Assembly: GCA_045118075.1 (NCBI GenBank)
Contig: JBGUOI010000202.1
Location: forward strand, 7,741-71,740
DNA: 64,000 nt
Direction of reading: 5' to 3'
From: Porcincola sp.
GTDB taxonomy: Bacteria; Bacillota; Clostridia; Lachnospirales; Lachnospiraceae
Made by a program: the position numbers and the translations under genes. Below, piece after piece: positions 45,109-60,482 of the stretch. The notes beneath the pieces were generated by a model. That model searched no databases and was not told where the DNA came from. It saw only the letters and a program-made list of their open reading frames with translations. Position 1 is the stretch's first letter. Every line of letters begins with the position of its first letter.

Positions 45109-46053
45109 TCAGAGCCCCGCTCTCTCAGCCGCCGCATTGAAGGCGCTCACGCATTTTTCGTACATGGCGCGGATGCTCGTTTCCGGGTTCACGCCCGGGT
45201 ACGGCTTCACCTCGAGTGAGATGCTCGCCCGCTCTTTCCCGCGTCCGATAAATCCGCAGCGGATCATCTGCTCGAACTGGTCCTCAAAATCCTTCTGGGT
45301 AAACAGGGCACCTCTCACCTCAAGAGGCGGATGGGTGTGTCCGTAGAATACATTATCCTCTTCCAGCACCGCATCTCCCATATGGACGTGTTCAAATCCG
45401 ATCTCTGCGCTGTCGGCGATCGACTGTTCCACGGTCTCGCACATCAGCGGAAGGTGGGCGATATCCATCATCAGGCCGCTGTTTTCGGCGCCTTCCGAGC
45501 GCATCTTGCGGATAAAGTCCGCGCACTCCGCAGTAGGGCCTAAGATCAGTTCCTTAAAGCGATGGCGCTCGATCGGCTCGAGCAGCACACGGATAGGAAA
45601 CTGCTTTGCCTCTTCGCACAGTCTCAAGAAGAACTCGCTGTAGCGCTTCATCAGCTCCGGTCTCTTCTCCTCGCCGGCATCATGGCAGCCGGTAACGACG
45701 ATGATCGGGCTTTCGGCCTCAGCCGCATTGAAAAGATGACGCCGCATGACCTGGTATGCGCTCTCCCGAACATCCTTATCGTCGCTGCAGGTATTATAGG
45801 GGCCGTCCACCTGGAAATAACCCGGGGTGTTGTAGTTGAGCACCTTATGCGTATCACGGAGCATCTTCAGGATCTGTCCCTTCAACCCCTCATCAAAAGG
45901 CAGGAAGCTCTCCATGGCCTCGAACTCATAAAGTGGTGTACACCGGCTGTATGCATCAAGCAGCGCGATGTCATCATCAAACCCTTCCGGGAACAACATG
46001 GTCGGGCTCATGCCAAACCGAACAACCTCACTGAACTGCACCATATTACTCAC
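45109..46053 (-). CDS. xylose isomerase-like TIM-barrel protein (sugar phosphate isomerase/epimerase family)
   Basis: 314 aa. Metal-ligand-like contexts LLEPIERH, MMDIAHL and HVHMGD are spaced as in the AP_endonuc_2 fold. First gene of the tct operon. Confidence 0.55.
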   Translation of the reverse strand: MSNMVQFSEVVRFGMSPTMLFPEGFDDDIALLDAYSRCTPLYEFEAMESFLPFDEGLKGQILKMLRDTHKVLNYNTPGYFQVDGPYNTCSDDKDVRESAYQVMRRHLFNAAEAESPIIVVTGCHDAGEEKRPELMKRYSEFFLRLCEEAKQFPIRVLLEPIERHRFKELILGPTAECADFIRKMRSEGAENSGLMMDIAHLPLMCETVEQSIADSAEIGFEHVHMGDAVLEEDNVFYGHTHPPLEVRGALFTQKDFEDQFEQMIRCGFIGRGKERASISLEVKPYPGVNPETSIRAMYEKCVSAFNAAAERAGL

Positions 46054-46112
46054 CTCCGGCCTCCCGGCCTGTGTTCAAGCGGTCTCCCGGCTCCTCGACA
46101 GTTTCCGTTGTG

Positions 46113-46122
46113 TTGTATACAA
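46113..46122. promoter_or_regulatory. GntR/FadR-type operator candidate, perfect palindrome TTGTATACAA
   Basis: The 10-bp perfect palindrome fits the T-x-GT-x(n)-AC-x-A consensus. It lies 60 nt upstream of the tct operon start codon, and an identical copy is at 46275-46284. Confidence 0.4.
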
Positions 46123-46138
46123 TGTTTATCACCTCAGA

Positions 46139-46158
46139 TTTGTTGACGTACCAACAAA
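46139..46158. promoter_or_regulatory. inverted repeat TTTGTTG-N6-CAACAAA
   Basis: Two 7-bp arms are separated by ACGTAC. The repeat overlaps a plus-strand TTGTTG-17 nt-TATAAT (46163-46168) promoter-like element. Confidence 0.3.
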
Positions 46159-46274
46159 CGGCTATAATCATTGATAATATAAATGTATATGATGTATGCA
46201 ACAAAGTCAATCAGCAATTAGAAACGAAATGGGGCAGTGTTTTTTATGCAGAATGACTAAAGCAGGGCGGTTGT

Positions 46275-46284
46275 TTGTATACAA
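46275..46284. promoter_or_regulatory. second copy of TTGTATACAA palindrome
   Basis: Identical to 46113-46122. Followed 4 nt later by a G9 homopolymer (46289-46297). Confidence 0.35.
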
Positions 46285-46318
46285 GAGCGGGGGGGGGAAA
46301 AAGGGTGATTAAGATGAT

Positions 46319-46507
46319 AATACAAGCCCGGTAAAGGGATCATGAGCACGTCGCTGACTTGAAAAGACTGCGCCGCCTATTTGGATGCTTTCTACGCAAC
46401 TCGCGCTCTTGCGAGCGCTCAGACAAGCTTCGAAAGCATCCGCTAGGCGCAGCCTTTTCCGGCGTCAGCTTCCTACCGCTCATGACCCTCTTTGCCGGGC
46501 TTGTATT
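46319..46507. repeat. 189-nt imperfect palindrome (rod-like hairpin) in non-coding DNA
   Basis: The arms pair segment by segment: AATACAAGCCCGG with CCGGGCTTGTATT, TCATGAGC with GCTCATGA, GCTGAC with GTCAGC, CTGCGCC with GGCGCAG, and GGATGCTTTC with GAAAGCATCC. The apex is GCGCTC-TTGC-GAGCGC at 46403-46418. Confidence 0.6.
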
Positions 46508-46651
46508 TTACAGTAACCATTCCTTACCCTCATCGCGTGTCCGGACCGCCCTGCGTCATCTGCAGATGACACCGGGAGGGCTGGCAAGACTGATTTACTA
46601 AAACCCACCGCCTATAGAGGCGTGAGTTTCAATGAATCGACAAGATGAAAA

Positions 46652-46822
46652 ATCACCCGCTGTGCAGAAAGTAAAAAACGGTAGGGTTGCGGCTTGAGTT
46701 TGCAAGTTCTTTGCCCGTCCGGAGCGGGACAACGCTTCTATCGTCCCCGTAGGACGGGCAGATAAGAACGCTGCAAACGAAACAAAGCAAGCCGTGTTTT
46801 TTACTTCTGTACAGCGGGTGAT
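46652..46822. repeat. 171-nt imperfect palindrome (second rod-like hairpin), 6 nt downstream of the GntR stop
   Basis: The outer arms are ATCACCCGCTGTGCAGAAAGTAAAAAAC (46652-46679) and GTTTTTTACTTCTGTACAGCGGGTGAT (46796-46822). Inner pairs are CGGCTTG with CAAGCCG and TGCCCGTCC (46712-46720) with GGACGGGCA (46752-46760). Confidence 0.6.
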
Positions 46823-46828
46823 ATTTAA

Positions 46829-47524
46829 TTATTTAAAAAGCTGTCCGGTGTCCTCCACCGATGACGCACTCGTCCGGATATGCTCCAATGCCACCATACA
46901 GCATATCCGCAGGTGCTTCTCGAGCAGGTCGGCCGCCACCGACGGCGGCTCCTGGCGGATCAGGCTGTTGAGGATCTGGATGTGCTCCTCGTTGGCGTCG
47001 TGCACCAGGTTGTTGTCCTGCTTGCTTGCGATGGTGATGCGCAGGTTGTCGTTGAGGGCGCGGTTCATCATCTCTATGATGTATTTGTTTCCGCACTGGT
47101 CCACGAAATAGTGGTGCATCTCCATGTCGATGTAATAGTGGGACAGGTAGTCGAGATGCCCGGAATTCATGTATTTGTGCTTTAAGTCGATGAGCCTGGC
47201 CACGTCGAGCCTGGGCGCCGCCATCTTCAGCGCCAGCGGTTCGAGGGCGATCCTGCACTGGAAGACCTGGAGCGCATCGTCGATGGTCACATCGTTGACA
47301 TAGATGCCCTTTTTGGGCACTACCCTGAGATATCCCTGGGATTCAAGCCGGTTTACCGCTTCGCGGATGGGGGTCCGGCTCACGTTGTATTCTTCTGCAA
47401 GCTGCACCTCGTTCAGCTGCGATCCCGGCTCATACTCACATGAGATAAGCTTGTCAAGCATCTGCAGATAGACGGAGGACCGAAGTCCCGTGGCAAGTCT
47501 GTCGGATTGTCTGTCCATCATCAT
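46829..47524 (-). CDS. GntR family transcriptional regulator with FCD (FadR C-terminal) domain
   Basis: 231 aa. Winged HTH LNEVQLAEEYNVSRTPIREAVNRLESQGYLRVVPKKGIYV, followed by a helical, His-rich ligand domain. Confidence 0.85.
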   Translation of the reverse strand: MMMDRQSDRLATGLRSSVYLQMLDKLISCEYEPGSQLNEVQLAEEYNVSRTPIREAVNRLESQGYLRVVPKKGIYVNDVTIDDALQVFQCRIALEPLALKMAAPRLDVARLIDLKHKYMNSGHLDYLSHYYIDMEMHHYFVDQCGNKYIIEMMNRALNDNLRITIASKQDNNLVHDANEEHIQILNSLIRQEPPSVAADLLEKHLRICCMVALEHIRTSASSVEDTGQLFK

Positions 47525-60109: not shown

Positions 60110-60358
60110 AATGCTCCCACAATCCTTTATTCTACAAAGTATTGTAGCATATCCGGGAGGGAAATGCACCGGCCGGCGGTTTCCCACTTTTGCCTTTTCA
60201 TGCGTACCTAGGACCAGAACAAACTTGCTTTCCCTACGCCCGTTTCCCGTTTTCGTCCCCGCAGGCGGGCGTAGAGATAAGATGAAAAGGGACGATCCTA
60301 TGTCATTCTATGATGACCGGACCGTCCGAAGTCATGTGCAGCTTGAAAAACATAAATG

Positions 60359-60434
60359 ACAAATACAAAAGGATCTTAAGCCTATGCCGCAGCGTTTTCA
60401 AAAGCGGCAAATAGCTTAAGATCCTTGTATTTGT
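60359..60434. terminator. 76-nt hairpin downstream of the S41-like gene, possible terminator
   Basis: The arms are ACAAATACAAAAGGATCTTAAGC (60359-60381) and GCTTAAGATCCTTGTATTTGT (60414-60434), with an inner GCCGC/GCGGC pair. T-rich tracts follow on both strands but are not immediately adjacent. Confidence 0.35.
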
Positions 60435-60482
60435 TTTATGTGTTTATGTCAAAATGACTCTAACGGCCGTCCCCTCTCATCT

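Follow-up and report, generated by a model that had tools for sequence, protein, structure and literature searches.

Results

The spacer between the GntR gene and the tct operon

The locus lies in a 64,000-nucleotide stretch of Porcincola sp. DNA (contig JBGUOI010000202.1, positions 7,741 to 71,740), referred to throughout as the window, and consists of the gap at 46054-46828 together with the two minus-strand genes that bound it. An initial annotation, made from the sequence alone, had described this gap as having no convincing open reading frame, and the longest one found there (46359-46601, plus strand) encodes only 80 aa and falls inside the repeats. The features of the locus are as follows.

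45109-46053, minus strand: xylose-isomerase-like TIM-barrel gene, the first gene of the tct operon; its start bounds the gap
46054-46284, minus strand: 5' control region belonging to the tct operon; ancestral and not repeat-derived
46285-46318, unstranded: junction segment with a G9 run at 46289-46297; the block without a sister-species counterpart starts here
46319-46507, plus strand: H1, a palindromic repeat (subfamily A) that forms a rod, with its conserved core at 46351-46459
46541-46584, unstranded: doublet of the short REP-like family (family consensus GATGACAGGGGACGGTCC / GGACCGTCCCCTGTCATC), a 2 x 22-nt inverted repeat
46585-46649, plus strand: M fragment, the 65-nt 3' end of a fourth repeat, M (~240 nt)
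46645-46829, unstranded: H2, a second rod-forming palindromic repeat, directly abutting the GntR stop codon
46829-47524, minus strand: GntR/FCD regulator gene; its stop bounds the gap on the other side
46845-46868, minus strand: REP-like piece within the 3' end of the GntR gene, an inverted repeat complementary to 46552-46575

The control region has no second copy elsewhere in the genome. On the minus strand it carries a -35 TTGACT (46210-46205) and a -10 TACATT (46187-46182), as well as two TTGTATACAA palindromes (46113-46122 and 46275-46284). This promoter-like TTGACT-17-TACATT element had been noted initially and was recovered by our scan, and the stretch containing it is identical at 32 of 35 positions in the sister species, whose genome we designate G003; from TTGTATACAA to the tct start codon the two species share 87% identity, and homology judged by eye extends to ~46285. 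The plus-strand TTGTTG-17-TATAAT element (46140-46168) that had been noted alongside it is visible in the sequence, but it sits within 46123-46179, the sole part of the control region without an alignment to G003. The junction segment (46285-46318) has no further genomic copy.

At the opposite end of the gap, the orthologue of the GntR-family regulator in G003 aligns over residues 1-220 of 231 only, and the final 13 codons are unlike those of the sister species (a tail of ...RTSASSVEDTGQLFK here, as compared to ...RTTNMTET). The repeats appear to have rewritten the last codons of the gene. On the minus strand, the REP-like piece at this end folds into a terminator-like hairpin at 46861-46845, after which comes ACAGCTTTTT, and the M fragment, also read on the minus strand, contains a small terminator-like hairpin (46622-46609) plus GTGGGTTTTA. 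A terminator scan of the gap returned three such small hairpins with a T-run, all on the minus strand.

Palindromic repeats in the spacer

The rod noted initially at 46319-46507, our H1, has a minimum free energy of -101.3 kcal/mol (z -12.1) when folded as the plus strand and of -113.6 kcal/mol (z -10.0) when folded as the minus strand, and none of 200 shuffles folded as well. A covariance model built on the H1 core, designated R1, matches the window copy at full length on the plus strand with 116.5 bits (C202:54091-54199, C-numbers denoting contigs, which corresponds to window 46351-46459). The genome contains 19 core copies, falling into two subfamilies (A and B), and G003 has at least 28 copies; these are 80-92% identical, are spread over many contigs beside unrelated genes, and commonly occur as inverted pairs. 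One and the same core is found within two different outer-arm sets.

Arm pairing points to constraint on the hairpin. In the two species, arms pair over 95-100% within their own copy as compared to 78-86% with arms taken from other copies, and of 10000 permutations the observed value was reached by 0 (P1), 0 (P2) and 19 (P3). Stem cells are paired in 95.5% of cases as opposed to 89.0% in shuffles, and pairs with double changes number 11 as against 4.0 in shuffles (0 of 500 shuffles as high).

The second rod, initially placed at 46652-46822, is borne out as H2 at 46645-46829, with outer arms of 33 nt (46645-46677 / 46797-46829) that are 82% complementary and a minimum free energy of -96.5 on the plus strand (z -10.3) and -91.1 on the minus strand (z -10.6). 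It has three further copies in the genome, at C165:21001-21176 (92-92.7% identity), C132:7232-7388 (89%) and, truncated, C240:23024-23083, and at least one in G003. Compensated double changes are present at 10 of 62 pairs among four copies, and of the sites compared with G003 one is common to both species and another is absent from G003.

Between the two rods, the perfect 16-bp palindrome GTCATCTGCAGATGAC at 46555-46570 is present as had been reported, and lies within the 2 x 22-nt doublet as a member of the short repeat GACAGGGGACNGTCC. Comparable doublets occur elsewhere (e.g. C170:26259-26305, C15:2366-2412 and C238:35957-36003). An exact 15-mer of this REP-like repeat has 14 occurrences in the genome and 21 in G003, as compared to at most one (0-1) in each of 39 relatives and none for the reversed control, and GACAGGGGACGGTCCT has 107 matches with at most 3 mismatches, where our own estimate of the chance expectation is ~26. 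The repeat thus shares with REPINs a short REP palindrome, arrangement in inverted doublets, many copies and intergenic location. The adjoining M fragment has three other genomic copies at 80-85% identity; elsewhere, repeat M terminates in an RBS plus ATG immediately 5' of three unrelated genes, and scanning it against Rfam gave no match. All four repeats are multi-copy, and their full-length copies are intergenic; no overlap with an ORF of at least 150 aa was seen in any of 23 copies.

The H1 family across the Lachnospiraceae

R1 gave full-length, multi-copy matches in 16 of 300 other Lachnospiraceae genera (17 of 301 including its own) and none in ~386 other Clostridia outside this family. 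The elements are hairpin rods of ~220-240 bp, in which double changes occur at 26 of 31 pairs and 93% of cells pair as compared to 61% in shuffles. Their loops, CTGCGCCGC.TA, AACTC, GCTCA(G/A)ACA and GCTATGCTCGC, are conserved, and both this conservation and the stem covariation hold over GC contents of 36-70%.

The core usually lies ~55-65 nt 3' of a stop codon, with the rod beginning a few nucleotides after the stop and in many instances directly following TAA. In other genera, 30 of 34 copies with an upstream gene no more than 150 nt from the core are co-oriented with that gene (30:4), as are 33 of 45 when all copies are considered; in our genome and G003 together the figure is ~29 of 38 (~29:9). 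A bias of this strength towards the strand of the upstream gene would be expected of an RNA element acting in cis. The initial annotation had considered that the hairpins might simply be multi-copy repeats with no positional preference; multi-copy they are, but the preference in both position and orientation is strong. The window copy is an exception to it: it is oriented against the genes on either side, and the nearest stop is 320 nt away.

The genes beside copies in other genera, judged by reading their sequences, are of the ordinary housekeeping kind, and no transposase recurs among them. A phage or plasmid origin was rejected, with 0 matches in viral contigs, phage records or plasmid records; the exact core pattern was found only in 2 metagenome contigs and in 3 contigs of one other species, Lachnospiraceae bacterium UBA4348. 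Eight loci from other genera gave no Rfam match at E up to 1, and a description of interspersed palindromic repeats of Lachnospiraceae was not found in the searchable literature or Rfam. Judged by these searches, the H1 family is a previously undescribed one, Lachnospiraceae-wide and patchily distributed.

Comparison with the sister species

The block from ~46285 to 46880 has no counterpart in the G003 sequence assembled at the orthologous locus, where there is an assembly gap: the locus is split over two contigs (the end of C140 and the start of C67) whose ends are reverse-complementary over 25 nt. A repeat may possibly have gone unassembled there, and because of this gap the orthologous site cannot be called empty. 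Elsewhere the two species differ in both directions. Elements are confined to G003 at the sites orthologous to our C168, C227, C169, C240, C192 and C210, and to our genome at C190, C46, C238:35577 and C132, while orthologous copies are common to both at C155, C202:91513, C238:33046 and C165. Filled and 'empty' sites often differ by the presence of another palindromic element rather than a clean empty site. One B element lies between direct repeats, 18-20 bp long, of a REP half-site (ATGACATAGGRCACTCCT); no consistent target-site duplication was seen at the other species-polymorphic sites compared with G003. In keeping with nesting, short forms consisting of the outer arms alone are found for A (C227), B (C157, C43 and window 60284-60478) and H2 (G003 C102).

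Stem substitutions and transcription signals

Selection on an RNA helix is expected to tolerate G-U on the transcribed strand only. Among 1300 stem cells in 47 copies, 1152 are Watson-Crick, 22 are G-U and 29 are A-C; G-U makes up 4 of 554 stem cells in the two species and 3 of 318 across the family. That G-U is as rare as A-C argues for a DNA hairpin and not an RNA. A strand call based on a crude whole-arm count (G-U 101 versus A-C 61) was discarded, as that count is confounded by shared ancestry and loops; stem-only wobble counts show no bias. Template-switch repair is another route to compensatory changes in palindromes, and one that needs no selection.

We considered H1-type rods as intrinsic terminators and ruled them out, since no T-run follows the rods: the 10 nt after them contain a mean of 2.7-2.9 T, and tails with at least 5 T were found in 8 of 46, 1 of 15 and 2 of 27 cases in three sets. 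The terminator or insulator once suggested for this spacer is therefore plausible only as a by-product, to which the three small minus-strand hairpins may contribute. A scan of window 45500-47400 against Rfam 15, including 6S, ROOL, GOLLD, raiA and OLE, returned nothing credible with E values of up to 10 allowed.

Discussion

We consider it probable that several interspersed palindromic DNA repeats, stacked together, make up the long spacer, and, on balance, that the segment between the GntR 3' end and the tct promoter/operator region is a hot spot for at least four families of such repeats, namely H1, H2, the short REP-like palindrome and the M fragment. The initial annotation had listed ERIC-like repeats or a novel repeat family among its options, and this option has fared best: every hairpin in the gap is multi-copy, the presence of copies differs between the two species, and the H1 family is absent from Rfam. 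The elements appear to be a variant of the REPIN/MITE/ERIC type.

The resemblance to each of these systems is partial. Like REP, REPIN and BIME sequences of Proteobacteria, the elements are multi-copy intergenic palindromes stacked as mosaics in one spacer, with a short unit of ~21-27 bp that is single or in inverted hairpin-forming doublets, lineage-specific persistence, and substitutions that preserve the hairpin; however, the rods here greatly exceed them in length (220-240 bp), carry internal loops that are asymmetric and conserved, belong to a Gram-positive Lachnospiraceae host and are strongly biased in orientation to the upstream gene. ERIC/IRU elements of Enterobacteria (~127 bp) are likewise long imperfect palindromes of transcribed intergenic regions that vary in copy number among related species and in size via internal insertions and deletions, yet their sequence is unrelated and their taxon is another, whereas the present family spans 17 genera, covaries completely in its stems and is tied in position to stop codons. 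With MITEs (Correia of Neisseria, RUP/BOX of Streptococcus, bcr1 of the Bacillus cereus group) the elements share small size (<600 bp), a non-coding and foldable sequence, multiple copies, insertion polymorphism, and frequent location at gene ends where transcripts can be affected. Unlike in MITEs, the hairpin takes up the whole element, in place of an unrelated interior bounded by terminal inverted repeats; no parent IS with matching ends was found in our own genome, and no clear target-site duplication at the sites compared. A further parallel is offered by the attC sites of integrons, imperfect palindromes in which structure is conserved more than the sequence of the stems. They covary by Watson-Crick pairs only, have conserved unpaired bases that distinguish the strands, and lie directly after an ORF in fixed orientation. 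In contrast to attC, the copies here are dispersed singly or as inverted pairs after housekeeping genes and not in arrays beside an integrase, the element alone is polymorphic rather than gene plus element, and the length is about twice as great; no GTTRRRY box of attC was seen by eye in the elements.

The enzyme that would move such elements was sought among known candidates. Neither RAYT nor IS200 is tenable as a mobiliser: Y1 (IS200-type) genes are present irrespective of the repeats (14 of 19 genomes of the genus, the repeats being in only 2), no REP-like motif lies within 1.5-2.5 kb of any of 5 Y1 genes, and a RAYT-like protein is encoded in 5 of 18 element carriers and 2 of 20 non-carriers. 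As such, the REPIN-RAYT arrangement differs from that found here, where no RAYT is repeat-flanked and no RAYT-like gene co-occurs. A blastn-short search of our own genome for a parent IS with H1-A, H1-B or H2 termini returned just short elements. An IS1182-family IS at C238:7737-9508, with its transposase split over two frames, has a half of the short REP-like palindrome on either side, the two halves being inverted. IS1272, of the same family, inserts into inverted repeats in a hairpin-targeting manner (PMC5678879), and the arrangement at C238 fits insertion of that kind, but the ends of this IS (GAGACCACTG...) match neither the H1 nor the H2 rods.

It is reasonable to postulate that the elements are non-autonomous mobile DNA, active as folded single-stranded DNA, whose conserved unpaired loops would be read by a putative trans-acting enzyme. 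They would land in or beside existing palindromes at gene 3' ends, which would account for hairpins being nested within hairpins. In the spacer studied here the repeats would have no dedicated RNA product; they would lengthen the spacer and probably do no more than hinder, incidentally, transcription running on into the tct operon. A more specific proposal, which we put forward tentatively and think somewhat doubtful, is that the H1 rod represents a new Lachnospiraceae-specific class of folded-single-strand mobile DNA, in which a recombinase or nuclease of neither RAYT nor IS200 type recognises the asymmetric loops and directs oriented integration into post-stop hairpins, with nesting as the outcome. 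An alternative form of this idea is a host-domesticated version at gene 3' ends.

The most serious competing view, although we regard it as unlikely, is that H1-type rods are cis-acting 3' UTR RNA structures (mRNA stabilisers, processing sites or unconventional terminators) read by an RNA-binding protein, which spread as repeats and were kept for their function, the window copies being decayed or misplaced. The bias towards the strand of the upstream gene, the regular distance of the core from the stop codon with many rods straight after TAA, and the conserved loops and covarying stems over a wide range of GC content are all what this view would predict. It is difficult to reconcile with G-U pairs that are no commoner than A-C (22 and 29 of 1300 stem cells), with the missing T-run (mean 2.9 in 10 nt; 8 of 46 tails with at least 5 T), with the frequency of inverted pairs, and with a window copy that is antisense to both of its neighbours. 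The initial annotation had listed RNA in a different form among its options, and on such a reading the gap would encode one ~650-nt trans-acting non-coding RNA, or two rod-shaped (6S-like) ones, transcribed from the plus-strand promoter at 46140-46168. That promoter-like element is present and the folding energies are very low, but we find this account hardly credible: the element is not conserved in the sister species, Rfam holds no match, G-U is not in excess, the assembled G003 sequence holds no match to the block at this locus, and the hairpins are dispersed repeats that fold equally well on either strand.

Two further readings were considered. The hairpins might be immobile terminators that owe their likeness to common ancestry, local duplication or gene conversion, with the differences between species being deletions only. 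Long palindromes do tend to suffer internal deletion, and the outer-arm-only short forms resemble plain post-gene hairpins; nonetheless, 80-92% identical copies beside unrelated neighbours on many contigs, the same core in two outer-arm sets, copies specific to either species, the patchy distribution (17 of 301 genera) and rods lacking a T-run make this improbable. That the spacer is an artefact, a chimeric join made through repeats in a 292-contig assembly, is suggested by contigs that end within the repeats (C279, C280, C150 and C240) and by the break at the same locus in the sister genome. We give it very little credence, as the window lies on a single 96-kb contig and the flanking genes are adjacent in the sister species too (the C140 end and C67 start, with their complementary 25-nt termini).

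The reading we prefer, of interspersed palindromic DNA repeats, has practical and biological consequences. Such repeats break short-read assemblies, contigs ending inside them in both species; they alter gene 3' ends, as in the GntR tail, and may pass for non-coding RNA genes. R1 serves as a specific detector of the H1 family, given its 0 matches in the non-Lachnospiraceae Clostridia. In abundance, the Lachnospiraceae rank with the foremost bacteria of the gut and rumen. With its conserved loops, its fully covarying Watson-Crick stems, a set position behind stop codons and no partner enzyme that could be recognised, the H1 family is a good entry to the movement and persistence of non-autonomous hairpin elements beyond the Proteobacteria.

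A stack of dispersed repeats upstream of the tct operon

The gap at 46054-46828 lies on a contig of 96 kb in a draft genome of 3.47 Mb (292 contigs, 52% GC). Minus-strand genes bound it on both sides, and it thus contains the 3' flank of the first gene and the promoter of the second. The long hairpins described in the initial annotation are borne out: a first palindromic repeat, H1 (46319-46507), and a second, H2 (46645-46829), each form an almost unbroken rod whichever strand is folded, with energies 10 to 12 standard deviations below those of dinucleotide shuffles, and the 16-bp perfect palindrome is present within a 2 x 22-nt inverted repeat. The suggestion of a known structured RNA found no support, as the gap matches no Rfam family at E up to 10, and the proposed plus-strand promoter falls within 46123-46179, a stretch without alignment to the sister species, and is not conserved. 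Of the readings offered there, the palindromic repeat family is the one that a copy search bears out, as every hairpin in the gap is a dispersed repeat; the finding is real, but it is not a single-copy structured RNA. Relative to the rest of the genome, 46054-46318 is the sole unique stretch of the gap.

Features of the locus, in minus-strand order
46829-47524, minus strand: GntR/FCD regulator gene, upstream of the gap
46861-46845, minus strand: GntR stop with a REP-like hairpin (short dispersed palindrome family) and T-run
46645-46829: H2, then TGATTTTTCA
46585-46649: fragment of a fourth repeat, M, with a small hairpin and GTGGGTTTTA
next: REP-like doublet
46319-46507: H1, reverse orientation
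next: C9 run
next: TTGTATACAA operator-like palindrome
next: conserved promoter
45109-46053, minus strand: xylose-isomerase-like TIM-barrel gene, downstream of the gap and followed by TctC

The sister species, a member of the same genus (G003), carries flanking genes that are 80-95% identical. At its orthologous locus the minus-strand promoter TTGACT-17-TACATT is matched at 32 of 35 positions, and the stretch from TTGTATACAA to the start codon is 87% identical; by eye, homology upstream reaches a second TTGTATACAA (~46285) and then ends. A G9 run (46289-46297) lies exactly at this border between sister-shared sequence and repeat block, and probably belongs to the junction rather than to the operator. 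On the other side, alignment of the GntR proteins stops at residue 220 of 231, the tails reading SASSVEDTGQLFK here and TNMTET in the sister species. A REP-like piece at 46845-46868, complementary to 46552-46575, encodes our tail, and the last 13 codons and stop of the gene (46829-46880) are REP-like in origin, unlike those of the sister species; repeat insertion thus rewrote the 3' end of the gene. Since homology ends on both sides, ~46285-46880 is without counterpart in the assembled sister genome. That assembly splits at the orthologous spacer, where, over 25 nt (GTCAGAATCTGTCATACTTTCATGT), the end of contig C140 is the reverse complement of the start of C67, a pattern typical of an unresolved palindrome, and given this break the sister spacer may also hold some palindromic element. 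Judging from structure, the stacked repeats probably make it harder for transcription of the regulator gene to run on into the tct operon, an effect that would be a by-product of repeat accumulation and not a designed insulator. In itself, the locus is an ordinary pile-up of repeats.

Repeat families in the genome

The ~100-nt core of H1 occurs in 19 copies in the genome (nhmmer), and as four of these lie at contig ends the real number is higher. Five copies (subfamily A) have the outer arms of the window copy and are ~85% identical, while 14 (subfamily B) have different outer arms, with inverted halves of the short palindrome on their flanks. The sister species has at least 28 copies of H1 type, and BLAST found none in the other 17 genomes of the genus; the exact core pattern occurs in only one other species, "Lachnospiraceae bacterium UBA4348". 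H2 has two full copies and one truncated copy elsewhere. The 16-bp palindrome belongs to a short family with consensus GATGACAGGGGAC-G-GTCCCCTGTCATC, matched 107 times at up to 3 mismatches against ~26 expected by our own estimate; exact 15-mers number 14 here, 21 in the sister species and 0-1 in 39 other relatives, with none for the reversed control.

The fragment at 46585-46649 is the final 65 nt of the ~240-nt repeat M (C155:6575-6850, C15:5200-5448 and C157:17120-17365), which matches no Rfam family and elsewhere terminates in a ribosome-binding site and ATG directly 5' of three unrelated genes. Every copy ends in GGAGTGACAAGATGAA, the source of both signals. From our reading of the translations, we take two of the downstream genes, both full length, to be pseudouridine-synthase-like and CobK-like; the ORF at the third site has just 11 codons.

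Short forms consisting of outer arms only were found for subfamily A (C227), subfamily B (C157, C43 and window 60284-60478) and H2 (sister species). The form at 60284-60478 lacks the core and has REP-like inverted halves on its flanks (GAAAAGGGACGATCCT ... reverse complement of GAGAGGGGACGGCCGT). Some H1-type cores (G003 L046:1509-1639; genomes G328 and G044; locus L079) hold a further nested palindromic insert, which in one case is ~40 nt long and separates the TAT loop from stem P2, and in another is ~30 nt long and lies in the apical loop. The overall picture is one of hairpins nested within hairpins, an architecture that may arise from insertion into hairpin apices or from internal deletion. 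A third long palindromic repeat, 'C' (ACCCTGTTCCACGGGGA.CG.TC.CGCTCTTACCTCGCGCAGCGGTAC ... and its complement), often adjoins subfamily B copies (C190:21040-21190, C238:35790-35930, C152, C291, C77, C280, C43); it is also frequent in the sister species, where its chance inclusion in flank queries returned more than 30 matches.

Pairing in the hairpin is constrained: across 42 copies drawn from both species, arms on average pair better within their own copy than with arms taken from other copies.

Pairing of core-stem arms with their own and with other-copy arms
P1: 10 arm-pair variants; own 96.7%, other-copy 79.8%; 0 of 10000 permutations reach the observed value
P2: 19 arm-pair variants; own 94.7%, other-copy 78.4%; 0 of 10000
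P3: 6 arm-pair variants; own 100%, other-copy 85.7%; 19 of 10000

In 18 H1 copies, 95.5% of cells were paired against 89.0% in shuffles, with 11 doubly changed pairs against 4.0, and slid controls fell far below the observed score. For H2, just four copies supplied 10 compensated pairs.

A family across the Lachnospiraceae

A covariance model of the H1 core (R1; 108 positions, 31 pairs) found full-length matches in 16 further genera among 300 Lachnospiraceae genera sampled. In a class-wide sample the matches were confined to this family (3 of 13), with none in ~386 other Clostridia, a result that doubles as a specificity control. Genomes with matches carry several copies, for example G242 at least 12 and G275, a closed genome, at least 5, counts that are lower bounds as 12 candidates per genome were scored. 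From other genera, of 36-70% GC, 47 copies were retrieved, and Rfam scans of eight loci from these genera gave no match at E up to 1. The unpaired segments are conserved (CTGCGCCGC.TA, (A)AACTC, GCTCA(G/A)ACA and GCTATGCTCGC); the stems differ completely yet still pair. In the first 11 copies, both sides had changed in 26 of 31 pairs, 93.1% of cells were paired against 60.7% in shuffles, and the covariation score was 0.79, compared with 0.20 for shuffles and no more than 0.14 with slid partners, in an alignment that was fitted to the model and so favours structure somewhat. Folded with 70-75 nt flanks, the complete element forms a rod, spanning a median of 224-243 nt.

Signs of mobility and the search for a partner enzyme

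Loci of the sister species were compared with our genome. At six sites (own contigs C168, C227, C169, C240, C192 and C210) the sister species has one or two H1-type copies where ours has 25-120 nt, often merely a short REP-like palindrome. Copies found only in our genome are those of H1 at C190, C46 and C238:35577 and of H2 at C132, and orthologous copies common to both lie at C155, C202:91513, C238:33046 and C165. Cleanly empty sites are rare, the same spacer tending to hold differing palindromic elements in each species, and for this reason no consistent target-site duplication was definable.

IS200-type Y1 genes are common in the genus with or without the repeats, which flank none of these genes. 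The RAYT-like protein encoded in single copy at C243:16954-17595 was rejected as a partner: of 18 carriers only 5 have an orthologue, compared with 2 of 20 genomes lacking the element. No insertion sequence with H1 or H2 termini was found in our genome, and collections of phages, plasmids and viral contigs have no match to the repeats. An element of the IS1182 family outside the window (C238:7737-9508) has inverted halves of the short palindrome (GACAGGGGACGGTYC) on its two sides, as if inserted at the centre of the 21-bp palindrome with a 9-bp duplication of GGACNGTCC. It encodes DUF772, DDE_Tnp_1 and DDE_Tnp_1_6 domains, its transposase is split over two frames, and a third GACAGGGGACGGTYC-type end lies at C238:15886. 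The arrangement recalls the inverted-repeat targeting reported for IS1272 (PMC5678879), although nothing links this element to the long rods.

DNA or RNA

Position and stem pairing point in opposite directions as to whether the H1-type element acts as RNA or as DNA. In other genera, 34 copies have an upstream gene no more than 150 nt from the core, and 30 of them share the orientation of that gene (two-sided binomial ~6e-6, our own estimate), and in our genome and the sister species the ratio of co-oriented to opposed copies is ~29 to 9, several of the exceptions probably being miscalled ORFs. The core lies 55-65 nt past the stop codon, so that the rod starts within a few nucleotides of it, and many rods directly follow TAA. 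Such placement would suit a transcribed element; however, a selected RNA helix is expected to show G-U pairs well above A-C mismatches on the transcribed strand, and 1300 stem cells hold 22 of the former and 29 of the latter. No T-run follows the rods, which are therefore not standard intrinsic terminators, inverted copy pairs are common, and the window copy is opposed to both neighbouring genes.

Given stems that are Watson-Crick only, the missing T-run, the inverted pairs and the orientation of the window copy, we favour a DNA hairpin, as a folded single strand or a cruciform, whose asymmetric loops a protein would recognise, much as in REP/RAYT systems, at IS200/IS605 ends or at attC sites. 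The orientation bias could then arise because elements integrate in one orientation into hairpins that follow genes, or because the opposite orientation is selected against. To judge by Rfam and the literature that could be searched, the H1 family is new, and, with no known mobilising enzyme, it is unusual in its pattern of conservation and in its position after stop codons.
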